The notes: generated from the sequence alone by a model not told the origin. A stretch of DNA of 44,552 nucleotides from Elusimicrobiales bacterium (GCA_049972095.1 JBMFKQ010000005.1:17431-61982), one strand, 5' to 3'. Shown: positions 19 through 44,552, numbered from the stretch's first letter. Numbers and translations are program-made.

Positions 19-1056
19 ATGGAAAAAGAGAATAAAGATTTTGAAGAACTTGTGAGAGATCTTAACTCACTTCTTGAGAAAATTCCTGATATGATAGGTA
101 AGCCAGAAGAGCAGATTTCTAAAATGGATGAGAAAGATCAAGAAGCTGATAATAAATCTGATACAGAGTTGCAGAATTTAAGCGATATTGAAAATTTTAT
201 AATAACACCACAAGCATCTGATGTTAAAAATAAGGATGTTGATAGCAGTGCTAAGAAATTAGAAGATAATCAGCAGGTTTTAGATATTGATAATGAAGAA
301 GAGAAAAAGAAGGATGATGTCAATGAGACTTTAAATCATAGTGCTGATGACATAAAACTTGAGCCTCCTGATGAGATGGTTATCCATAATGAAGATATAA
401 ATCAGTTCTCAGATGAGATTAAAACTGATATTCAAGTAGAGCAAAGCCCTGTTACATCACCATCCAGTTATGACATTGAATTAGATAAATCTGAAGAAAA
501 GGATAAAGATGAAAAGAGTTTTGAAATATTAGACTCACACCAGAAAGAAAAAGAATTTAGCGTTGATATTCAAAGTAGTTTTTTTGAAGAAGAACATCAA
601 ATACAGTGCACAGAAAAACAAAAGGATTTCAATAACCTTTTACTTTCAGATGAGTTGAAAGATATAATTTATGCCAAAAAACCCTCTGATGTTAGCGATG
701 AAAGGGTTAAGAAGATAGGCTTAGTATGTTCAATTAATGGTGAGACTGTGCTTAAGCACTTTTTAAGATATTTGGATGAGATATGTTTTTCATCAAAGAA
801 TAAAAAAATGTTTGTTGAAAGAAGTTTTGTTTTATTTTATGATGAAAACTTTTCAGTTGAGAACTTAATTATAAATGCTGGGAATGAAAAGGTTAATGCA
901 GTTGTGCTCATTGGTGAGATTCCTGTTGATAAAGTCTATGAGATTAAAAACGCTGTGTCTCAAGCAGGCTATATCTTCTTTTCGTTTAGCATGAAGAATC
1001 TTTCAAGATCCGAGGTTATTGATTTTGTTCTTGATTTAATTGCGGGAAGTGTATGA
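19..1056 (+). CDS. Hypothetical protein: long acidic low-complexity N-terminal region plus ~115-aa alpha/beta C-terminal domain shared with the next gene
   Basis: 345-aa ORF; in-frame TAA at 7-9 fixes the start; D/E-rich to about residue 230; ATGA overlap with the next gene. Confidence 0.85.
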   Translation: MEKENKDFEELVRDLNSLLEKIPDMIGKPEEQISKMDEKDQEADNKSDTELQNLSDIENFIITPQASDVKNKDVDSSAKKLEDNQQVLDIDNEEEKKKDDVNETLNHSADDIKLEPPDEMVIHNEDINQFSDEIKTDIQVEQSPVTSPSSYDIELDKSEEKDKDEKSFEILDSHQKEKEFSVDIQSSFFEEEHQIQCTEKQKDFNNLLLSDELKDIIYAKKPSDVSDERVKKIGLVCSINGETVLKHFLRYLDEICFSSKNKKMFVERSFVLFYDENFSVENLIINAGNEKVNAVVLIGEIPVDKVYEIKNAVSQAGYIFFSFSMKNLSRSEVIDFVLDLIAGSV

Positions 1057-2753
1057 TAGGAAAGTGGGAGATAAGAAAGATTGGTTCAAAAAAGGCACTT
1101 CTGCTTAAGGGAGATTTCAAGGATATTGTAAATATAATCAAGAAGATTGGACCTGTGCTTTCAAGACCTGAAAGGCTTTTGAAAGGGGATTATAATTTCA
1201 TAATGTATATACTTGAATCTAATGATTTAACTGAGGAAAAAATAAAAAAAGCAATAGAGAACATCACCTCAAAAATTACAGAGAAAAAACAGAAGGTCCT
1301 TGAGAAGAAAGAAGATATAAAAGATTTATCTAAGGACAAAGAGGTTGAAATACCAATGCCTGATTTTGAGGTTAAGCTTGAAACTAAAGAGGAGAAAAAA
1401 GAAGAATCTATAATAATACCTAAAGGTGGTCCTGTAACTCCAAAGAGAATTTCCGAAGACTCTGTAGATAAAAAAGATGGGAAAAAAACTGAGCAAAAGC
1501 CTGATCATAAGAAACTAACACCTCCTCCATCACCAAAGCTTTCCCAAAGAAGCATAGATAGACTCAAAATGCGCTGGTCAATAGAGCTTCCATTAAACCC
1601 AACATTGAGCTTTCAGACGCTAATCACTGGTTCTCATAATAGATTTGCTCATGCCGCAAGCATGGCAGTAGTTGAAAATCCTGGTGTTATGTATAATCCC
1701 ATACTGATATGGGGGCCGATAGGGAGTGGAAAATCTCATTTCATACACTCAATGTCTTATGGACTTTCATCAACAATGGGACAGAAGAATATATTTGTTA
1801 CAAATGGGGTTAAGTTTTCTGTTGGTGTCACGCTTGCAATAAAAGAAGGTTTCATAGACAGCATTGCTCAGCTAATAGAGAACTCAAAGGTTATTATAGT
1901 TGATGACATTCATCTTATGCTCATAAACAAGGAGAATAAGGCTTTTATAAGCAAGGTTATATCTGATTGTATGAGCTCAAACAAGCAGGTTATTTTCTCA
2001 TCACTCTTCTCGCCAAAAGAGCTTGAGCCTCTTGAATCAATGCTTGGTATAGAAATATCTCAGGGGTGGATGGTGGATATAAAGCCACCAAATCCTCAAA
2101 CATACAAAGCCATACTCAATCAAATACTTACAAATATGGATGTAAAACTTAGTGAGGATGATATAAAAAGGTTTTTTGTTGATAGATCTTTGGATTTTAG
2201 AACACTAACGGTGATGCTTTTTAGAATGAAGAAACTTGAAAAATACATCTCATCACAGAAACAATCTTTGTTGCATCAAGATCTGCTTGATATGCTTTTT
2301 GGTGATAATGATGATCTTTCTTCACCAACTCCCCAGGAAATAAAAGATGTAAACAGATATGCATCATCACCTGACAGCTTTTATAAATGGGGGATCTTCT
2401 ATCCAAAGGGCATGAAGGATTATGTTAACTATGTTCTTTACAAACTTTCGCAAACCTTTTCAAGCATAATTAAAACAAGCTTAAGCTGGTATCTCGTTTT
2501 TGAGGAGGAATATGATCCTGAGGAGGTCTATGGTGTAGCTTTCAAGATTGGGAACACTGTTCTTGAAAAAAATGTCAATGGCATAATAGTCATAGGACCC
2601 CAACCAACAAGTCCACTTGCTGCCAGGGAAGCTGAATTTAGACATCTCGTTGACAAGATAGTTGAGAGTTTAAATGTTAGAAGTGCCTGGATATATTCAT
2701 CACGCCTTAAGTCCCAGTCCAACTACCTCAATGCACTTCTTGATCTGATATGA
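1053..2753 (+). CDS. DnaA-like AAA+ ATPase-domain protein without DnaA domain IV (not a canonical initiator)
   Basis: LNPTLSFQTLITGSHNRFAHAASMAVVENPGVMYNPILIWGPIGSGKSH matches the DnaA domain III start and Walker A; Walker B VIIVDDIH; no recognisable domain IV helix-turn-helix. Confidence 0.85.
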   Translation: MIGKWEIRKIGSKKALLLKGDFKDIVNIIKKIGPVLSRPERLLKGDYNFIMYILESNDLTEEKIKKAIENITSKITEKKQKVLEKKEDIKDLSKDKEVEIPMPDFEVKLETKEEKKEESIIIPKGGPVTPKRISEDSVDKKDGKKTEQKPDHKKLTPPPSPKLSQRSIDRLKMRWSIELPLNPTLSFQTLITGSHNRFAHAASMAVVENPGVMYNPILIWGPIGSGKSHFIHSMSYGLSSTMGQKNIFVTNGVKFSVGVTLAIKEGFIDSIAQLIENSKVIIVDDIHLMLINKENKAFISKVISDCMSSNKQVIFSSLFSPKELEPLESMLGIEISQGWMVDIKPPNPQTYKAILNQILTNMDVKLSEDDIKRFFVDRSLDFRTLTVMLFRMKKLEKYISSQKQSLLHQDLLDMLFGDNDDLSSPTPQEIKDVNRYASSPDSFYKWGIFYPKGMKDYVNYVLYKLSQTFSSIIKTSLSWYLVFEEEYDPEEVYGVAFKIGNTVLEKNVNGIIVIGPQPTSPLAAREAEFRHLVDKIVESLNVRSAWIYSSRLKSQSNYLNALLDLI

Positions 2754-4582
2754 TTGCTCCTCTATTCATCTTTTTATCAGCATTTTTTGTTTCTTTCTGG
2801 TATATTAGATTCAGATATGTGCTTCCACTTCACAAGAAGATTGAAGAGTATAATAAATTCTACTTATCATTTGAAGATTTTATAGAATCTATCCTTTCTA
2901 CTGCAGTTTCATTCCGTAAAGAAGATTACCTCAATCTTACAAACATTATCTTAATAAAGTTTAACAACATAGTATCCGATGCATCTTTTTATATTGTTGA
3001 GAAAAAAGAGGATAATGTAAGCATTATAGGCGCTATAAACAAGGGTAATTTCAATATGGATCCTTCAAAGATTAAAGACATAGTTTTTTCTGCAAAGGAT
3101 GAGCTTTCATACATAGAAAGAGCTGATATATTTGAAGAGGAAAAAAAACATTTTGCTGTGATATCTCTCAATGATGGATTAAAGAATATCAGTATTGTTG
3201 CTATGATAAATGAAGAGGATAAGGATACTGTTTTAAGGTATTTCAGATTTATACTTCTATTCTTGAAAACCTTTCTTAATTATTACACTGAGATAGAAGA
3301 AAGAAACAGAGAGATAAAAAAGCTTAAGGCAGAGCTTGATGGTATAATTAAGGAGCTTGAAAGTCAGGAAACAAAGCTTATAAAAAAGCACAAGGAGGCA
3401 AGGCTTATATATGAAGGCATATCCACAATAAGCTGTGAGCTTGAAAATCCTGCCTCTTATCTCATAGAGCTTATTTACAGAACTATTACGCCTCAATTTG
3501 TGGTTTGCTTCGGTTATTCCAATGAGGATAATAAACTTGTAGCTCTTTTCACACAGCCATCTAACATCCAGATTGACTATAGAGTGGATCTCACAGAAGA
3601 GCAATCACCACTTACAAAGGTGTTTATCAATGCAAATCCTATGTATATAACTGACGAGCAAGATATAAGATCAATACCTTTTGTAAAAGACACAAATAGT
3701 CAGACTCTGCTTATTTTCCCTGTTATGACAGCAAAGAGAAAATATGGAGTAATAGTCATTTCTGATAGTAAAAAGAGAAAATATTCTCAGGATGATTTAT
3801 CACTGATTGAGATATATTCAAAACAGCTTGCACTCTTTATGAATCTTTCAGATCTATATTCAAAGATATCACAATATGCTATAAAGATGGAGAGTCTAAA
3901 TAAGATAAAGGATGAGTTTATAGCATCGGTAAACCATGAGATCAAAACACCTCTTACAACCATAAAAGGATTTCTTTCTGTTCTTCTTAATGGTGATGCG
4001 GGTTCTCTTAATGACCAGCAAATAGCATTTCTTAACCTTGTTGATCAAGCAACAAATAGATTAATAAATATAGTTACAAATCTTCTTGATATATCAAAGC
4101 TCACTTCAAAAGCAGATATAGAGATGGAAAAAGCAGATCTCATACAGACCATAAATACCCTTTTGCCATCGTTAAGAATGAAGGCATACTCTAAGAATAT
4201 AAGAATCATTTTTAATTCTGAGATTAAAAATGCTATGATTAAGATGGATAAACACTGGATAGCTCAGGTTATAAACAATCTTGTAGATAATGCAATAAAA
4301 TATTCCATGCCGTCAAGTGTTGTAAATATATCTGTTTATGATAAAGGAGATGTTGTGATTTTTTGTGTTGAGGATCATGGATATGGAATAGATGAAGAGG
4401 ATAAAAAATTCATATTTGAGAAATTTTTTAGAGGTAAGAATGTTTCTCTTAATACACAAGGCAGTGGGCTTGGTCTTGCAATAACCAAAACAATAATAGA
4501 AAAACACAATGGAAAGGTATGGTTTGAGTCAGAAAAAGGAAAGGGGAGCAAGTTTTATTTTGCCCTAAAAAAAACAGAATAA
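2750..4582 (+). CDS. Membrane-anchored GAF-domain sensor histidine kinase (HisKA + HATPase_c)
   Basis: N-terminal hydrophobic helix; GAF-like LLIFPV...YGVIVI...YSQDDLSLI; H-box NHEIKTPLTTIKG; N-box NLVDNAIKYS; G1 DHGYGI; F IFEKFFR; G2 GSGLGLAI. Confidence 0.93.
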   Translation: MIAPLFIFLSAFFVSFWYIRFRYVLPLHKKIEEYNKFYLSFEDFIESILSTAVSFRKEDYLNLTNIILIKFNNIVSDASFYIVEKKEDNVSIIGAINKGNFNMDPSKIKDIVFSAKDELSYIERADIFEEEKKHFAVISLNDGLKNISIVAMINEEDKDTVLRYFRFILLFLKTFLNYYTEIEERNREIKKLKAELDGIIKELESQETKLIKKHKEARLIYEGISTISCELENPASYLIELIYRTITPQFVVCFGYSNEDNKLVALFTQPSNIQIDYRVDLTEEQSPLTKVFINANPMYITDEQDIRSIPFVKDTNSQTLLIFPVMTAKRKYGVIVISDSKKRKYSQDDLSLIEIYSKQLALFMNLSDLYSKISQYAIKMESLNKIKDEFIASVNHEIKTPLTTIKGFLSVLLNGDAGSLNDQQIAFLNLVDQATNRLINIVTNLLDISKLTSKADIEMEKADLIQTINTLLPSLRMKAYSKNIRIIFNSEIKNAMIKMDKHWIAQVINNLVDNAIKYSMPSSVVNISVYDKGDVVIFCVEDHGYGIDEEDKKFIFEKFFRGKNVSLNTQGSGLGLAITKTIIEKHNGKVWFESEKGKGSKFYFALKKTE

Positions 4583-5838: not shown

Positions 5839-6837
5839 ATGAATGGTATGAAAGATACTAAAACATATAAGGATATATTAGAAATACCTGCCCTTCTTAG
5901 AAAATTTGATGAGATTAACTCATCACTTCCATCTTTTTTGAAAAAAAACGATGAATTTTTTCTTATCGGAAGAGGAAGTTCTGGTAATGCTACACTTTTT
6001 GCCAAATATATATGGGAAAGCTACTGCGGCAAGATAAGCAACATAGTTCATCCATTTTCCATATTCAACTTAAAAAAGAATTTTAATATGAAGGGGAGAA
6101 CTGTTTTTTCTTTTTCTCAGTCTGGAAGAAGCTATGATGTTGTGGAGTGCACTAAAAGGCTTAAAAAAATGGGGGCAAATATTGTTGCCGTTACAAATGA
6201 GCCTAATCTTAAAAAAAACACACTTGCATCTATATCAGACTTTCACATACTTCTCTCAAACTCCCCTGAAATACCAGTTGCTGCTACAAAAAGCTTCTTG
6301 CTTCAGCTATGGGCTATTTTGAGAATTTCTAATTTTCTTGGAAGTGGTTTTCCTCAAACAAGATTTAAGAAAAGTATAGAGGAGATAGAGTGGGTTATAA
6401 AAAACTTTGAGAGAATAATAAAACTTGATACTGAAATGCTGATAAGATCAAGGGTTGTAGGATTCATTGGAAGAGGACCTTTCAATGCTATCTGTGAAGA
6501 TGCAGCACTTAAATTCAGAGAGATGGCTCAGCTTCAGACACTTGCCTATTCAGCAGCAGAATTTCTTCATGGACCTATTGGAGCATTCACTAAAAGAGAT
6601 TATGTTGTAATACTCTCAAGAGGGAAAAAACTTACAGATGATCTTAAACTTGTTTCTGATAAACTTAGCATCAGAAAGGTTTGCTGGTGTGCTGTAAAAC
6701 CATTTTCAGACAACTATCCCTTTAACACTCTTGCAGTTGATGTTTTTATGAAGCTTGTAGCTCTTTATGTTTCTGTTAAAAAGGGATTAAATCCAGATAA
6801 TCCAGTTGGTCTTTCCAAGATAACATATACCTTTTAG
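5839..6837 (+). CDS. Double SIS-domain protein, probably glucosamine-6-phosphate deaminase (NagB-II / GlmS isomerase-domain-only)
   Basis: GRGSS, SQSGRS, VAATKSF, EDAALKFRE, AEFLHGP, C-terminal NPDNPVGLSKIT; no glutaminase domain. Confidence 0.8.
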   Translation: MNGMKDTKTYKDILEIPALLRKFDEINSSLPSFLKKNDEFFLIGRGSSGNATLFAKYIWESYCGKISNIVHPFSIFNLKKNFNMKGRTVFSFSQSGRSYDVVECTKRLKKMGANIVAVTNEPNLKKNTLASISDFHILLSNSPEIPVAATKSFLLQLWAILRISNFLGSGFPQTRFKKSIEEIEWVIKNFERIIKLDTEMLIRSRVVGFIGRGPFNAICEDAALKFREMAQLQTLAYSAAEFLHGPIGAFTKRDYVVILSRGKKLTDDLKLVSDKLSIRKVCWCAVKPFSDNYPFNTLAVDVFMKLVALYVSVKKGLNPDNPVGLSKITYTF

Positions 6838-6846
6838 GGAGGCATT

Positions 6847-8127
6847 ATGAAAAGGGTGATCCTTATTGGATTAGTTTTTTTTGCATCATGTTATTCAAAC
6901 ATAAAAAAACAGCAGGATTTATTACTCAAATATACTGCTGTGCCAAAATGTAAAGAGGATGAGGTGCTTGTATGTAAAAAGATTGAGGTTAGAGAGGCTG
7001 ATATAGTCAAAGCTGATGCAAAAAATATAAACTTTGAGTTTCCATTAGACGAAAGCTTTAAAAAAGCTCTTGAGATGAATATAAAGTATCTTACTAAACT
7101 TGATCGCGAGATAAAATATAAATTTGCAGATAGAATCATTGATAAGAACACCCTTGTCTTATCAGCACTAAAACTTAAAGATATTGTTGAAAGTTCTACA
7201 AATGCAGATGAATTTAGAAAGAAGGTTATTGAAAATTTTGATTTTTATGAGCTTGTTAAGGGAAGTGAAGCAGTGACTTTTAGCTCATATTATGAGCCTA
7301 TTTTTGAAGCAAGTTTTAAAAAGGATGAAATTTACAGGTTTCCTATCTACAGAAAACCTGATGATATGGTTGAGGTAAACCTTGAAGATTTTGATGCAGA
7401 TAAATACAAAGGGCAGAAACTAACAGGAAGGCTTTTAGGCACAAAGATGCTGCCATACTATTCCAGAGAAGAGATAGATTTTGATGGCATTCTTTCAGGT
7501 AAAGGATATGAGATAGCATATCTTAAAGATATAACAGATCTGCTTGATCTTCATACTCAGGGTTCTGGAATACTTAAGATAAGAGAGGGGGGATATAAAA
7601 GAGCAAGGTTTGCTGCTACAAACTCACTTAAATTTAAAGGATGGATGAGCACACTACTTGAAAATGGATATATAGAGAGAAAAGGAGCTATTGGGGAAGA
7701 TAAAACATTTTATGATAGAGCAAAAGATTTTATAAATAAAAACCCACAGCTATGGCGACAGATTATATCTCAAAACAAAAGATATGTATTTTTTTATCTT
7801 GATGATCTAAAGTCATTTGACGAAGGGCCAATTGGAAGCTATGGCTTAAGCCTTGTTGCCCACAGATCCGTTGCAGTTGATAACTCTCTGATACCTCTTG
7901 GAACTGTTGCTTTTGTGAGTTTGGAACTTCCCGATATTGATGAGAGTCTAAATTTTAAAGGTTTTAAACCTTCAAACAGATTTGTATTTTGCCATGACAC
8001 AGGAGGTGCAATAAAGGGAGCAAGGGTTGATTATTTTGCAGGAACTGGTGATAAGGCTAAAAAATTTGCCTATTCAGTGTGGAAAAAGGGAAATTTTTAT
8101 CTTATGGTTGCTAAGGAAAAGATATGA
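6847..8127 (+). CDS. mltA: MltA-family lytic murein transglycosylase lipoprotein
   Basis: Lipobox-like FASC; SYYEP, HTQGSG, N..YVFF, AVD...IPLG, 3D motif DTGGAIKGARVDYF; GGAGG RBS. Confidence 0.9.
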   Translation: MKRVILIGLVFFASCYSNIKKQQDLLLKYTAVPKCKEDEVLVCKKIEVREADIVKADAKNINFEFPLDESFKKALEMNIKYLTKLDREIKYKFADRIIDKNTLVLSALKLKDIVESSTNADEFRKKVIENFDFYELVKGSEAVTFSSYYEPIFEASFKKDEIYRFPIYRKPDDMVEVNLEDFDADKYKGQKLTGRLLGTKMLPYYSREEIDFDGILSGKGYEIAYLKDITDLLDLHTQGSGILKIREGGYKRARFAATNSLKFKGWMSTLLENGYIERKGAIGEDKTFYDRAKDFINKNPQLWRQIISQNKRYVFFYLDDLKSFDEGPIGSYGLSLVAHRSVAVDNSLIPLGTVAFVSLELPDIDESLNFKGFKPSNRFVFCHDTGGAIKGARVDYFAGTGDKAKKFAYSVWKKGNFYLMVAKEKI

Positions 8128-9314
8128 AATCTCTTTTAGCTCATATACTTTACTTTGCTTTCTCGCTTTCATCCCAAGCAGAGCTATTGACAGGGATAGA
8201 TATTCTTGAAAAAAATAATTTTGATATTCTTAAAGGCAGAAGGGTAGGCCTTATAATAAACCACACATCGCTGGATAGAAATGGTAGAAGTGATGTAGAT
8301 GTAATGATTGATGCGGGGGTTGATATTAGAGCAATTTTTAGCCCTGAGCATGGTTTTATGGGAAATGAGAAAGCAGGTGCAGATGTGTTGGATTCATCAT
8401 ACAGAGGTATTTCAGTATATAGTCTTTATGGTAAGAATAAAAGACCGGATGATAAAATGCTTGAAAATATTGATACACTTGTCTTTGATATTCAGGATGT
8501 TGGAGCAAGATTCTACACATATCTTACAACGATGGGATATGCCATGGAAGAAGCAGCTAAGAAGAAAATAAGATTTATTGTTCTTGACAGACCAAATCCT
8601 ATTTCATCTTCAATTATGGAAGGTCCTGTCCTTGATGATGATATAAAGGCATTTACAGCATATTTTGCTGTGCCTGTAAGACATTCTCTTACAGCTGGTG
8701 AGATGGCTATTTTTCATAAGATTAAATCAAATATCGATCTTGAACTTTATGTGGTTAGGATGGAAGGGTATAAAAGGGATATGTTTTTTGATGAGACATC
8801 AATTAAATGGGTTAACCCTTCGCCTAACATAAGAAATCTAAATACTGCTATTCTCTATCCAGGTATAGGATGCTTTGAGGCGACAAATATCTCTGTTGGA
8901 AGAGGCACTGATATTCCTTTTGAATTTTTTGGTTCTCCCTGGCTTGATAATTCAAGGATCAGTGATGAGCTAAACAAAAGAAAACTTAAAGGGGTTGAGT
9001 TTAAGCCATGCTACAGAGTTCCTTCCGAGGATCTTTATGCCGGTGAGGTAGTTAATGGGGTTTGTATTAAAGTTACAGACAAAAGAAAGGTTAGAGCATT
9101 TGATATTTTTGTAAATGCAATATATTTGATAAATGCCTTTTATCCTGATAAGCTTGTTATAAGAGAGAGAGAAATCACACTTATGACAGGGAGCAAGGAC
9201 TTTTATCTTCTTCTAAAAAATGGAGCAACGCCAAAACAAATAGTTAGAAGATATAACAAAGCTTTAAAAGATTTTAAAAAATACCTTAAGAAAAACAATA
9301 TAAAGCTCTATTGA
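8124..9314 (+). CDS. namZ: Exo-beta-N-acetylmuramidase, NamZ/DUF1343 family, with signal peptide
   Basis: RVGLIINHTS, FSPEHG, FDIQDVGARFYTY, LDRPNP, PSPN, SVGRGT. Confidence 0.88.
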   Translation: MKSLLAHILYFAFSLSSQAELLTGIDILEKNNFDILKGRRVGLIINHTSLDRNGRSDVDVMIDAGVDIRAIFSPEHGFMGNEKAGADVLDSSYRGISVYSLYGKNKRPDDKMLENIDTLVFDIQDVGARFYTYLTTMGYAMEEAAKKKIRFIVLDRPNPISSSIMEGPVLDDDIKAFTAYFAVPVRHSLTAGEMAIFHKIKSNIDLELYVVRMEGYKRDMFFDETSIKWVNPSPNIRNLNTAILYPGIGCFEATNISVGRGTDIPFEFFGSPWLDNSRISDELNKRKLKGVEFKPCYRVPSEDLYAGEVVNGVCIKVTDKRKVRAFDIFVNAIYLINAFYPDKLVIREREITLMTGSKDFYLLLKNGATPKQIVRRYNKALKDFKKYLKKNNIKLY

Positions 9315-41074: not shown

Positions 41075-41804
41075 TGTCAGTCTCCATCTTCCCAGCTATG
41101 CCAAGTTTCTTGATTATCTCATCAACTCTCTTTTCTTTTTCCTCAACCTCCTTTCTTTTTGCATCAAGATCAGCTTTTATCTTTTCAAAAACCTTTATAA
41201 GCTCCTTTTTCTTCATATTATATTCTTCTTCAAGTCTTTTTTCTCTAATCTTAAGTTCATTTATCTTTCTTTCATACTCCATATTATATCTGTTTTTTAA
41301 AACATCAATCTCTCTGTTTTTTTCCTCCCATTGTAAAAGCATCTTTTCTTCTTTCTGCCTGAACTCCTCATAGAGCTGTTGTATTTTTTTTGAATATTCA
41401 CTCATAAGCCTTGCTTTCTGGCTTGAAAACTCCATTACTCTTGCCTCAAGCGATGCAGCCATATCCTCCATCTCTTTTTTAATTCTTAGATTCTCCTCTG
41501 TAAGCCTTTTCTTTTCCTCACTAAGTTCAACTATCTGGTTTTTAAGAGTATTAATCTCTTCCTCAAGTTTCTCAATCTTTATTCTATGTTTTTTTTCAAG
41601 CATCTTAACCCTTTCCTCAACCTCTTTTTCCTTTTCAACTATAAACTCATCTGCTGTTCTTAGAGAGTGTTCAAACTTCTCCATTATTGCAGTCATCTCA
41701 ACAGCAGCAACATTCTTCTCATCCCATAATCTTTTTGAAAAATCAATAAGCTTCTGATAAATCTCGTCTGGAATACACTTTATTTTCCTTATCTCCATAA
41801 TCAT
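41067..41804 (-). CDS. Hypothetical coiled-coil protein
   Basis: 245-aa E/K-rich helical ORF; ATGA overlap with the upstream gene. Confidence 0.82.
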   Translation of the reverse strand: MIMEIRKIKCIPDEIYQKLIDFSKRLWDEKNVAAVEMTAIMEKFEHSLRTADEFIVEKEKEVEERVKMLEKKHRIKIEKLEEEINTLKNQIVELSEEKKRLTEENLRIKKEMEDMAASLEARVMEFSSQKARLMSEYSKKIQQLYEEFRQKEEKMLLQWEEKNREIDVLKNRYNMEYERKINELKIREKRLEEEYNMKKKELIKVFEKIKADLDAKRKEVEEKEKRVDEIIKKLGIAGKMETDNE

Positions 41805-44552
41805 TTTTCTTTATATCTATTTATGGCTCTTATAAGCTCAAGTCTCAAATTCTCAAGCTCACTCTCTTTAACGGCGTACTCCTTTTCAAGCTTAATTCTC
41901 TCATCATTCAGCGCCTTTTCTTTTTCATAAAGCTCTTTTCTCTTCTGAGCTATCTCTTCCTCAAATCTTGTCATCTTATCAGAGATGATCTTCTCCATTT
42001 CAATTGTAGTTTTCTTGAGATTGACTATTATATTATCCTTTTCTGATATCTTTTCTTCAAGTGAGCTAATAAGATTTTTCAAACCTTCAATCTTCTTTTC
42101 ATACTCACTACAAACTCTGTTTCTTTCATTTATAACATTCTCTTCAATCTTCCCTTTGAGATAAATAATCTCATCATTGAGCCTTTTTTTCTCATCGTTG
42201 ATCATCTCAATTCTCTTATTAAGCTGTAAGATTTGTTTTTCAAGATCCTCTCTCTCCCCTTCAACATTCTTAATCCTTGCCTCATAGATTTCCTTAATCT
42301 TGCTAATCTCCATTTTAAGCTCTTCTCTTTCCTTTTTATATTCCTCAATCATTTTATTGTAAAGTTCAATCTCTTCTTCCTTTCTTGCAGCAAAAATCTT
42401 CATATCATTTTCATACTTCTTCTGAGATAATTCAAGTTCAGTCTTTAGCTTTACATACTCATCATAATAATTTTTTGCCTCCTCTCTAACTCTTAATAAC
42501 TCACCAGAAATAGATTCATTTAACCTTTTCATCTCCTCTATTCTTGTTTCATATTTTTTGCTGAGGGTCTTTTCAAGATTGTCAATAAGCTGAGCGTAGT
42601 TCTGCTCCACCTCTAAGGTCTTTGTATCAAGTAGCTTCTTGCCTTCGCTCTTTATTCTACTCATCTCAAACCTCAACTCACTATTTTCCTTAATAAGACT
42701 ATCAATCTCTATATTTTTCTCCTCAATTGCTTTTACAAGTCCATCAAGTGTTTTTTGAAACCTTTCAACCTCTTTTTTTGCAAGCTCATTCTTTGCAACA
42801 ATTATATCATTAAATTTTTTCTCCATATTCTCAATCTCATTCTTGTAATTATCAGAAATCTCTTTTATAGCCTTGTCAAGCTCAAGGGAAAACCTTCTTT
42901 TTTCCTGCTCAGATATAACCCTTAGCTTATTCTCCTTTTCTTCAAGTTCCTTTTTAATCTTTTCTAACTCTTGCTTTAAAAGAGATATCTCCTCATCCTT
43001 TCTTCTTATCTCTGAGTTCATTTCTGATCTAATTCTTTCTCTATTCTGATCTAAAAGGGATGAGTATTTATCTTCAATCTCTCTAATTCTTTTCTCATAT
43101 TCATCAACAATCTTGTCTTTTTGAGCCTCATAATCATTTGCTATCTGTTTAATCTTATCCTCAAAATCAGCAACAATCTTGTTTATCTTCTCTGCATCCT
43201 CTTTAATAATGTTAGCCCTTTCATTTGCAAGATTATCTATAAGCTTTTGATATTCTAACTCCTTCTTAGAAAATTCCAATACAATACCCTTGATTTTTTC
43301 TTCATATTCAAAGGATATTTTCTTATTCTCATCCTCTATCTCCTTTACCTTTTCATCTTTTGATAAAATTATATTCTCATACTCTTGCTTCATCTTTGCT
43401 ATGTCATTTTTTATCTTTTCCATTTCATTTTGATGTTTAATATTAAGCTCGTTTTCAATCTCATAAATCTTCTTCTCCTTTTCCTCAACAAGAGTTTTTA
43501 ACTTCTCAATCCTTGCTTCATAATCCTTCCTCAGCCTCTCAAGCAACTGTGAATGATAGTTTTTTTCATTTTCAAAATTTATTAAAAGCTCTGATATTTT
43601 TATTTCATATTCTTTTCTTACATCTTCAATTTTTTTATACATCTCCTCTTCGCTTGATTTTTTAAAAGTTTCAAATCTTTGTTGGAATGCTCTTAATATA
43701 TCCTCATACTCTTTTTCCTTTAAAGTATAATCTTTCTTAATCTCTGATATCTTATTTTCATACTCACTTCTTACATTAGCCACAGCCTCATTTACAGCAT
43801 CATTCATCCTCTTTATAAACTCCTGCTCTTTCTCTATCATCATCTTCCTGTTTTGCTCAATCTCAAAAGTTGATTCAGCTAATTTCGATTCAATCTCCTT
43901 CCTTAAACCTCTTTCATTTTCAAGTTGTGATAAAAGGATAGATATTTTCTCTTTAAAGTTTTCTTCAACCTTACTTTTTTCCTCAAGTATCCTTGATCTC
44001 CATAAATGTTCAAGATGAATAATTTTTTCTCTGTATTCATTTTCAATCTTTTCAAATTTTTCCCTAAAATTTTCCCTCTCAGCTGAAATATTCTTTTCAT
44101 ACTCTTTTTTAATTTTGTCAAGCTCATTTATTTGTTTTTTTAACTCTTCCTCTTTTTTAGATATAACCTCTACAATCTCTTTATCCTTCTCTTCCTTCAA
44201 GTTCTTCAAAGACTCCTTTAACTTTATAATCTCCTCTTCTCTTTCTCTAATCATCTTCTCAAAATTACCTAAAATATCTTTTATCTTTAGTTCATATCTC
44301 TCCGATATCTCCTTTTCTTTATCCTTAACCCTTTTATCAGCCTCAAGAATTATCCTTTTTATCTCAGACTCGTAATACTCTTTTTTATCTCTGTATTCAG
44401 ACTCAATAAGAGATATTTTATCTTCCAAATTACCTCTTATCTCTTCTATTTTCTTTTCATAAGAAAGAGCCATCCCCTTTTTATCATTTTCAAATCTCTC
44501 CTCTATCTCCTTTATCTTTTTTGTATAGTCTTCAATCATCTGTTTCTTCTCA
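41801..44552 (-). CDS. Very large coiled-coil protein, 5'-truncated by the window edge (>912 aa)
   Basis: Frame stays open from ATG 44539 to the window end (GAG AAG AAA CAG ATG); no Pro, E/K-rich, recurring (Y/F)E.(K/R)I motifs. Confidence 0.88.
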   Translation of the reverse strand, partial: EKKQMIEDYTKKIKEIEERFENDKKGMALSYEKKIEEIRGNLEDKISLIESEYRDKKEYYESEIKRIILEADKRVKDKEKEISERYELKIKDILGNFEKMIREREEEIIKLKESLKNLKEEKDKEIVEVISKKEEELKKQINELDKIKKEYEKNISAERENFREKFEKIENEYREKIIHLEHLWRSRILEEKSKVEENFKEKISILLSQLENERGLRKEIESKLAESTFEIEQNRKMMIEKEQEFIKRMNDAVNEAVANVRSEYENKISEIKKDYTLKEKEYEDILRAFQQRFETFKKSSEEEMYKKIEDVRKEYEIKISELLINFENEKNYHSQLLERLRKDYEARIEKLKTLVEEKEKKIYEIENELNIKHQNEMEKIKNDIAKMKQEYENIILSKDEKVKEIEDENKKISFEYEEKIKGIVLEFSKKELEYQKLIDNLANERANIIKEDAEKINKIVADFEDKIKQIANDYEAQKDKIVDEYEKRIREIEDKYSSLLDQNRERIRSEMNSEIRRKDEEISLLKQELEKIKKELEEKENKLRVISEQEKRRFSLELDKAIKEISDNYKNEIENMEKKFNDIIVAKNELAKKEVERFQKTLDGLVKAIEEKNIEIDSLIKENSELRFEMSRIKSEGKKLLDTKTLEVEQNYAQLIDNLEKTLSKKYETRIEEMKRLNESISGELLRVREEAKNYYDEYVKLKTELELSQKKYENDMKIFAARKEEEIELYNKMIEEYKKEREELKMEISKIKEIYEARIKNVEGEREDLEKQILQLNKRIEMINDEKKRLNDEIIYLKGKIEENVINERNRVCSEYEKKIEGLKNLISSLEEKISEKDNIIVNLKKTTIEMEKIISDKMTRFEEEIAQKRKELYEKEKALNDERIKLEKEYAVKESELENLRLELIRAINRYKEK

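Follow-up and report, generated by a model that had tools for sequence, protein, structure and literature searches.

We analyzed a stretch of 44,552 nucleotides from an Elusimicrobiales bacterium (GCA_049972095.1; bases 17431 to 61982 of the 61,982-bp contig JBMFKQ010000005.1, called C5 here), referred to below as the window, and describe an operon of three genes at its left end: p1, coding for an acidic protein; p2, coding for a paralog of the replication initiator DnaA; and p3, coding for a membrane-anchored GAF histidine kinase. The central finding is that p2 is an extra copy of DnaA that has kept the ATP-binding motifs of the initiator, lacks its DNA-reading domain IV, and ends in a domain that is predicted to be MID-like and to share its fold with the C terminus of p1. 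We favor, with a probability of roughly 0.4, the reading in which p2 is a DnaA-derived ATP-binding adaptor, p1 is its partner, and p3 is a signaling add-on specific to certain lineages. This combination of an acidic protein, a DnaA paralog, and a GAF kinase had been proposed in an initial annotation of the sequence, and it is confirmed by the open reading frames (ORFs), their overlaps, their domains, and the charge of p1.

ORF calling placed all three genes in the same direction on the plus strand, with p1 at 19 to 1056 (345 amino acids), p2 at 1053 to 2753 (566 amino acids), and p3 at 2750 to 4582 (610 amino acids). The stop/start overlaps of the ATGA type by which they were said to be chained can be read directly in the sequence, at 1053 to 1056 between p1 and p2 and at 2750 to 2753 between p2 and p3. 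The frame of p1 opens at base 10 of the window, and the next gene upstream, 263 bp from p1, is a class I/II aminotransferase on the minus strand. Given this divergent neighbor, the operon consists of exactly p1, p2, and p3, and the earlier suggestion that it might continue to the left of the window was wrong.

A DnaA paralog without domain IV

In a Pfam search, p2 matched the Bac_DnaA family PF00308 with 94.6 bits over amino acids 181 to 341, far above the cutoff of 23, while Bac_DnaA_C (PF08299), the helix-turn-helix (HTH) domain IV, gave no match in p2 at an E value of ≤1. A canonical dnaA gene of 462 amino acids stands beside dnaN on another contig of the same genome (C36), with dciA nearby, showing that p2 is an additional copy and bearing out its identification as a DnaA paralog. 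The final third of that dnaA gene, toward its 3′ end, consists of N in the sequence analyzed (locus L004). The protein stays below the cutoffs of the equivalog models for both DnaA (TIGR00362, 136.4 bits versus 343.9) and Hda (TIGR03420, 41.3 bits versus 194.8). In the databases, the proteins of the operon's families are labeled “DnaA/Hda family,” “ATP-binding,” or “hypothetical,” with several p2 orthologs named “DnaA/Hda family protein” by NCBI.

The layout of p2 follows that of DnaA up to the end of domain III. The N-terminal conserved domain (1053 to 1277, plus strand; amino acids 1 to 75) was aligned across 21 sequences, including members of the families f2, f7, and f8 (our own family labels; alignment A5), and has an invariant tryptophan, W5, and a loop, CSRPE[KR], whose C, R, and P are nearly invariant. 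It had no Pfam match and no sequence relative in the PDB at an E value of <0.08. It is followed by a variable linker rich in K, E, and P (1278 to 1577, plus strand; amino acids 76 to 175; K 23%, E 13%, and P 10%), which in the f2 orthologs grows to about 600 to 1,100 amino acids of acidic, proline-rich sequence. The DnaA-type AAA+ domain III with its lid then occupies positions 1578 to 2312 on the plus strand (amino acids 176 to 420). Aligning 23 p2 orthologs, we found the Walker A motif (G221 to K227-[ST]-H229, consensus G..G.GK[ST]H) and the Walker B pair D284-D285 to be invariant in all of them. Box VII (amino acids 324 to 339, nucleotides 2022 to 2069) contains an arginine in none of the 23, and a residue resembling the sensor-2 arginine is present in only 6, those with an FR[TSN] row. 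A pairwise alignment with the DnaA of the same genome gave the corresponding result, since box VII of the host protein bears arginine and its counterpart in p2 does not.

In DnaA, Arg285 (the box VII arginine finger, in E. coli numbering) serves ATP-dependent head-to-tail oligomerization and the intrinsic ATPase activity, Arg281 and the sensor-2 Arg334 act in ATP hydrolysis, and the DnaA boxes are recognized by the HTH of domain IV (from an excerpt of PMC5742627). With the Walker motifs kept and both domain IV and the box VII arginine absent, p2 probably still binds ATP, and it is predicted to be unable to recognize DnaA boxes by means of a domain IV or to offer an arginine finger to a neighboring protomer.

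As a separate observation, a W..E-L-P-L..P segment is nearly invariant just ahead of the AAA+ domain (window positions 1572 to 1610; p2 amino acids 174 to 186). We take it to resemble the clamp-binding motif of Hda in position and form, although it may equally well be the ordinary L-N-P segment of DnaA.

The p2-like proteins of deep lineages (families f22 and f17 as well as three metagenome representatives) suggest how this architecture came about. Their PF00308 scores are about 240 bits. They keep box VII with both arginines, the T-S-D residues, and the sensor-2 arginine motif, and they end in the same C-terminal MID-like domain (L073, L074, and L089 to L092; P0320, P0366, and P0372). They look like intermediates of a domain swap. 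In the p2 proteins of f1, f2, f6, f7, and f8, which make up the class of the window's organism, those arginines have been lost. A normal DnaA with its DnaA_C domain coexists in each of the five other genomes tested. The simplest history compatible with these alignments would be a duplication of dnaA, then the replacement of domain IV, and then the decay of the catalytic arginines.

C-terminal domains of like predicted fold in p1 and p2

The domain that replaces domain IV in p2 (referred to as p2C here; 2346 to 2750, plus strand; amino acids 432 to 566) and the C-terminal domain of p1 (p1C; 649 to 1053, plus strand; amino acids 211 to 345) were modeled by AlphaFold2 (AF2) with predicted local distance difference test (pLDDT) scores of 89.0 and 94.9, respectively. 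Both models have an identical order of strands and helices in four repeats, a (beta-alpha)x4 arrangement. When each AF2 model was compared with representative structures in a VIA structural search, the best solved match was the same chain for both, the MID domain of Drosophila Piwi (6kr6_A), at residues 470 to 595 for p1C (Z score of 12.2, root mean square deviation [rmsd] of 2.9 Å, and 116 aligned residues) and at residues 470 to 591 for p2C (Z score of 11.6, rmsd of 3.4 Å, and 118 aligned residues). MID matches span 111 to 125 of the 135 residues of either domain, with Z scores of 10 to 12. The top 16 rows for p2C are all Argonaute or Piwi MID domains and the first other fold appears at a Z score of 9.1; for p1C, the first fold other than MID is a B12-binding domain (Z score of 10.2). 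Foldseek agrees, with E values of about 1e-3 to 1e-4 and the MID domain of MIWI as the top match of p1C (E value of 8e-4). In the ESM Atlas, p2C led only to Elusimicrobiota clusters, lumazine synthase, and Piwi-labeled clusters, and a search with p1 gave no usable match.

In the predicted structures, p1 and p2 thus end in the same MID-like fold. The earlier claim that the two proteins share a C-terminal domain stands at the level of the fold, where the AF2 models lead to the same top PDB chain, but it does not stand as a BLASTP similarity of p1 to p2 (E value of 0.27), and the likeness in sequence is marginal. A comparison of profiles with hhalign, based on 123 and 128 sequences, aligned p1C and p2C over 114 collinear columns reaching both C termini, with a probability of 58% and an E value of 9.9e-5. 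We consider the two domains to be probably distant paralogs.

Searched against 1.84 billion representatives, the p2C profile matched only 218 clusters. In each of the 150 of them that were listed, the domain forms the C-terminal end, and of 25 p2C-carrying clusters scanned, 24 contain Bac_DnaA and none contains DnaA_C. The wider p2C alignment conserves F-Y-P, Y, and G-P positions. After strand 3, the alignments show G-x-x-P in p1 and G-P-x-x-[ST]-S in p2. A CheY-like receiver was tried as an identification for p1C and p2C and rejected: the domains have four beta-alpha units as opposed to (beta-alpha)x5 and no conserved aspartate after strand 3, and receiver structures reached Z scores of just 8.0 to 9.7 in the VIA search.

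The remainder of p1 is an acidic low-complexity region (19 to 633, plus strand; amino acids 1 to 205) with 15.6% E, 14.1% D, and a net charge of −36, which we infer from its composition to be disordered and whose length varies widely among p1 orthologs. The protein as a whole matched no Pfam or NCBIfam family. Its own family comprises 121 matches, of which the named ones are almost all from Elusimicrobia, with one row labeled Bacteroidales. Nearly all are called “hypothetical,” apart from one “DNA polymerase III gamma/tau domain-containing” entry; no member has a Pfam domain, and the lengths are mostly 550 to 750 amino acids, so that the p1 of the window, with 345, is a short form. In one f1 relative (L038:3-923), p1 appears to be split over two frames with two partial matches, which may reflect a frameshift or an assembly error.

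Gene order and distribution in the relatives

We found p2 in all but one of 41 relatives (40 genomes), the exception being a genome that is 60% complete. In f1, p1, p2, and p3 follow each other in this order at 17 of 19 loci, and the other two loci are truncated at contig ends, where the two genes for which there is room are present. The same order was found at all seven loci of named metagenome-assembled genomes (five of which duplicate f1 loci) and at the single f7 locus. In f6, one of two loci has all three genes and the other has p1 and p2; in f8, a kinase gene follows p2 at five of seven loci, and p1 was detected at three of the seven. The synteny of the three genes that was checked in relatives therefore holds in f1 and recurs in f6, f7, and f8. 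It does so even though the p2 proteins of the families that keep the arrangement are only about 30% identical.

The junctions between the genes are also conserved. According to alignment-based start calls, which make these values approximate, p1 and p2 are spaced by −4 to +20 nucleotides in 16 of 22 nonduplicate relatives and p2 and p3 by −4 to +13 nucleotides in 15 of 19, while the remaining junctions have gaps of 78 to 193 nucleotides. Judged by this comparison, the tight gene junctions are not a product of chance.

To the extent that p2C marks p2, its distribution follows families. Among 201 Elusimicrobiota genomes, the domain was found in 10/10 genomes of f1, 59/59 of f2, 7/7 of f8, 1/1 of f7, and 2/2 of f17, in 2/4 of f6 and 4/9 of f22, and in none of the 63 genomes of f13 or the 11 of f16. 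There is one match per genome in 86 of the 87 genomes with a match; the exception is G081, an f2 member (genus g18, 2.6 Mb), which has two p2 copies at L075 and L088, with frames of 686 and 799 amino acids. In f2, p2 reaches 860 to 1,625 amino acids on account of a huge acidic, proline-rich linker, and it does so in genomes of 1.2 to 1.8 Mb, including one of 1.64 Mb in a single contig (G090). The possibility that p1 has been fused into these long proteins found no support, as the extra length is low-complexity linker in which the p1C profile finds nothing. In f22, f17, and f32, a DnaA paralog of canonical grade stands alone at seven loci.

A further gene accompanies the cluster. It codes for a lipoprotein of about 370 amino acids with a signal peptide and cysteine and without a Pfam match, and it follows either the whole cluster or p2 at 2 loci in f1, 7 in f2, 2 in f6, 1 in f7, and 4 in f8 (for example, L068:10504-11625 and L053:10907-12025). 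The homolog in the genome of the window lies outside the window, at C11:17875-18921. At L068 and L053 we also observed ComM after the lipoprotein gene, followed at L068 by DprA, TopA, and XerC-like genes.

The histidine kinase p3 and the search for a receiver

p3 begins with a single N-terminal hydrophobic anchor (2750 to 2830, plus strand; amino acids 1 to 27), the best hydropathy window starting at residue 1; the anchor and a Y-W-Y-x-K-F motif are kept in orthologs. Almost nothing precedes the anchor, suggesting that the rest of the protein is cytoplasmic and that p3 is tethered to the membrane and senses in the cytoplasm. An uncharacterized region (2831 to 3484, plus strand; amino acids 28 to 245) without any family at an E value of ≤1 leads to the GAF domain (3485 to 3838, plus strand; amino acids 246 to 363; GAF_2 at 32.3 bits and GAF_3 at 30.4 bits). 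Then come HisKA/DHp (3908 to 4108, plus strand; amino acids 387 to 453; PF00512 at 57.7 bits), with the sequence HEIKTP at amino acids 396 to 401, and HATPase_c (4247 to 4576, plus strand; amino acids 500 to 609; PF02518 at 98.5 bits), which contains the N, G1, F, and G2 boxes. GAF, HisKA, and HATPase_c all exceed their Pfam cutoffs. The catalytic boxes ascribed to the kinase could all be located (H at amino acids 393 to 403, N at 513 to 519, G1 at 541 to 547, F at 556 to 562, and G2 at 571 to 578). By these domains and motifs, p3 is a conventional HisKA kinase.

A search for receivers with PF00072 gave 23 matches in the host genome and our own receiver profile found 21 ORFs, none of them on contig C5, in agreement with the initial annotation, which had seen no response regulator in the operon or the window. 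It had pointed to the sequence upstream of the window as a possible location of a receiver gene; there is none there, nor is there a receiver ORF at any of 53 loci (52 from relatives plus our own locus, L029; sets of 35 and 18), with the 21 found in the host genome serving as a control. Kinases that dephosphorylate a receiver as well typically have an H-E-x-x-T motif beside the phospho-acceptor histidine. Since p3 has this motif and kinases without an adjoining regulator are common in the host genome, we expect its regulator to be an ordinary one encoded elsewhere in the genome.

Surroundings of the operon

The host genome has 1.44 Mb and is 96.5% complete. A search of sequencing runs found the stretch of the window in two DNA runs of hot-spring metagenomes, which belong to two studies, and in no RNA data set among the runs found. 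Downstream, the operon meets a convergent aminotransferase gene whose stop lies one base past the stop of p3. A scan for promoters and terminators yielded 25 promoter-like sites versus 22.2 expected, none of them in the gap upstream of p1, and a single terminator-like site on the opposite strand. Farther downstream, at 5839 to 9314, genes for a SIS-domain protein, an MltA-type lytic transglycosylase, and the exo-beta-N-acetylmuramidase NamZ are consecutive and resemble a peptidoglycan turnover or recycling cluster beside the operon. At the other end of the window, an ORF of 912 amino acids on the minus strand (41801 to 44539) has no credible Pfam match and reaches the window end; its region has an extreme strand composition, with a GC skew of about −0.5 and an AT skew of about −0.3.

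Possible roles of the operon

In the reading that we favor, the operon would be a vertically inherited one of class-level Elusimicrobia, formed around a degenerate copy of the initiator. p2 would stem from a duplication of dnaA and would have kept the I-II-III layout, with a small domain at the N terminus, the variable linker, and AAA+, while exchanging the HTH domain IV for the MID-like domain with its (beta-alpha)x4 fold. The arginine finger would then have been lost in the Elusimicrobiales branch, as would sensor 2 in most of its members, with the P-loop being kept. Such a protein would most likely bind ATP and neither recognize DnaA boxes nor drive hydrolysis in a homo-oligomer, acting as a nucleotide-loaded adaptor or switch. 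p1 would most likely be its direct partner, possibly through pairing of the like MID-like domains. In some lineages, p3 would be coexpressed with p1 and p2 as a GAF-sensing kinase of the bifunctional type that signals to a response regulator encoded elsewhere, and it may read or set the state of p1 and p2. The target could be DnaA and the initiation of replication: p2 would accept the arginine finger of DnaA, offer none itself, and block growth of the oligomer. Taken to its full extent, this would make p2 an initiation regulator of a new class, which would cap ATP-DnaA oligomers by docking onto them with its intact nucleotide site and, for want of an arginine finger, would be unable to extend them. 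It would be positioned or gated by the MID-like domains of p1 and p2 and tied to the GAF kinase, replication licensing in Elusimicrobia thus responding to a cytoplasmic signal, a role that we regard as unlikely.

Several observations weigh against the adaptor reading or parts of it. At all seven f2 loci that carry p2 together with the lipoprotein gene, p2 occurs without p1 or p3, and searches of five f2 genomes for p1C and for the sensor region of p3 found neither. The two p2 copies of G081 have no p1, kinase, or lipoprotein gene adjoining. Because p2 persists alone in f2, its core job would need neither p1 nor p3. The kinase is also missing at three of nine f6 and f8 loci; together with the f2 loci, this shows that it is not an obligatory partner. 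Its orphan status is unremarkable: of nine HisKA kinases in the host genome, five, including p3 (on C5, C28, C24, C29, and C37), have no receiver match on their own contig. The most constant neighbor of p2 is the lipoprotein gene and not any replication gene, and in the single-contig genome G090, the position of dnaA is about 1 kb and that of p2 about 163 kb, with nothing to place p2 at oriC. As for the pairing of p1 and p2, the p1C and p2C profiles do not cross-match and a first hhalign comparison (20 versus 21 sequences) gave just 12% with an E value of 0.0024, leaving their paralogy unproven. The MID-likeness is one of fold, a PDB sequence-profile search with p1C and p2C having returned no significant relative; generic Rossmann-like, B12-binding, and receiver folds follow 2 to 2.5 Z units below MID, and no basic residue, lysine included, is conserved in the wider p2C alignment.

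The lipoprotein gene leads to a different division of the locus, in which the functional unit would be p2, p1 where present, and the downstream lipoprotein, and the kinase would be an ordinary stand-alone sensor without specific coupling. The lipoprotein gene directly follows p2 at each of those seven f2 loci as well as at two f8 loci and one f6 locus, and it follows p3 where that gene is present (L053, L055, L070, L071, L078, and L082). Regulator-less kinases are the rule in the host genome, and the H-E-x-x-T motif of p3 fits a kinase acting on a receiver. A kinase without any coupling to its neighbors, however, would not be expected to keep its exact place after p2 in f1, f6, f7, and f8, to begin right beside the p2 stop or in overlap with it in 15 of 19 relatives, and to retain this arrangement while p2 diverges to about 30% identity between families. 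We hold this division to be possible, if on balance unlikely. A structural role is a rather improbable alternative: p1 and p2 might be scaffold or hub proteins whose long stretches of acidic and proline-rich sequence, together with small domains for docking, organize a membrane-proximal assembly and position the kinase, by analogy to polar hub proteins. The charge of −36 over 205 residues of p1, the length of its family members (mostly 550 to 750 amino acids without a Pfam domain), the f2 linkers of 600 to 1,100 acidic and proline-rich residues, the membrane anchor of p3, the lipoprotein gene as a conserved neighbor, and the degenerate ATPase of p2 are all consistent with it. On the other hand, the strictly conserved ATP-binding loop argues for a nucleotide-dependent role over a passive scaffold.

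The MID-like domains themselves, and the AAA+ domain, raise two further alternatives. MID domains bind the 5′ phosphates of guides, and it is conceivable, though very unlikely, that p1C and p2C bind a phosphorylated nucleotide or the 5′ end of a nucleic acid, which would make p1 and p2 a sensor, possibly for immunity or surveillance, with the kinase as its output. Both domain models have Argonaute or Piwi MID as their best match (Z scores of 11.6 to 12.2), and the conserved F-Y-P, Y, and G-P positions cluster at strand ends. Yet the three proteins of the window match neither the Piwi nor the ArgoMid family of Pfam and no PIWI domain adjoins, the searches linked neither domain by sequence to a solved MID, and the basic residues that are lacking in the wider alignment count against it as well. 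In addition, p2 is single copy (86 of 87 genomes) and occurs in every member of f1, f2, and f8 that was sampled, which is the pattern of a housekeeping gene and not of a patchy defense island. Helicase loaders are DnaA-related AAA+ proteins with an N-terminal helicase-binding domain, and p2 has a borderline match to IstB_IS21 (24.2 bits versus a cutoff of 24.1). A loader of the DnaC/DnaI type derived from DnaA was nevertheless rejected and seems extremely improbable to us, since the loader equivalogs are far below their cutoffs (NF038214 with 28 bits versus 200 and DnaI with 18.7 versus 228), p2 has no arginine finger, and DciA is encoded beside dnaA-dnaN on C36. DciA and DnaC/I are described as excluding one another, the exception being a few species that have neither protein (from an excerpt of PMC5109545), making a DnaC-type role unlikely in a genome with DciA.

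Significance

We found no published description of the p2 family or of the operon in a search of the full-text literature, supplements being outside its scope. As far as this search goes, the exchange of the C-terminal domain in this DnaA/Hda-type protein, whose gene shares a conserved operon with that of a kinase, had gone unreported. Given that all sampled genomes of three families (f1, f2, and f8) have retained p2, those of 1.2 to 1.7 Mb among them, it is probably important to the cell. The known regulators derived from DnaA (Hda/HdaA) supply an arginine finger, whereas p2 has lost its catalytic arginines stepwise, and intermediate forms of this domain swap in an initiator are still present in living lineages. 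If p2 acts on DnaA, it would represent a new way to control initiation; if it does not, the AAA+ module of the initiator has been put to a different use. Elusimicrobium minutum, a relative in culture, may carry a p2 of the f2 type, which, if so, would offer a route to experiments.

Comparison with known systems

Of the systems to which the operon can be compared, DnaA itself is the closest to p2, which shares its layout of N-domain, linker, and AAA+ domain III, passes the PF00308 cutoff, and matches it in the pre-Walker sequence L-N-P..F..G..N-R-F-A-H-A-A as well as in Walker A and Walker B; the deep-lineage p2 proteins also share box VII and sensor 2. It differs from DnaA in having the MID-like domain in place of the HTH domain IV, in the lack of an arginine finger in the branch of the window, in a score below the TIGR00362 cutoff, and in a gene that does not stand beside dnaN. 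Hda and HdaA, the regulators of RIDA that are related to DnaA, resemble p2 in being DnaA-derived AAA+ proteins without domain IV, and Hda regulates initiation without being an initiator. However, Hda is a short protein consisting of AAA+ only, which depends on an arginine finger of its own and on a clamp-binding motif, whereas p2 has 566 amino acids with extra N- and C-terminal domains, no arginine finger, and a TIGR03420 score far under the cutoff. The MID domains of Argonaute and Piwi share with the models of p1C and p2C a four-stranded parallel beta/alpha fold and are their best solved match, but the domains of p1 and p2 have neither a sequence relation to them nor a PIWI domain, and the protein context is entirely different. 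Finally, the KaiC-SasA system, where a histidine kinase reads the nucleotide state of a P-loop ATPase and passes the signal on to a regulator at a distance, offers an analogy for the possible logic of a link between p2 and p3, in which the state of the P-loop protein would be read by the kinase, although p1, p2, and p3 have no homology to KaiC or to the sensor domain of SasA.

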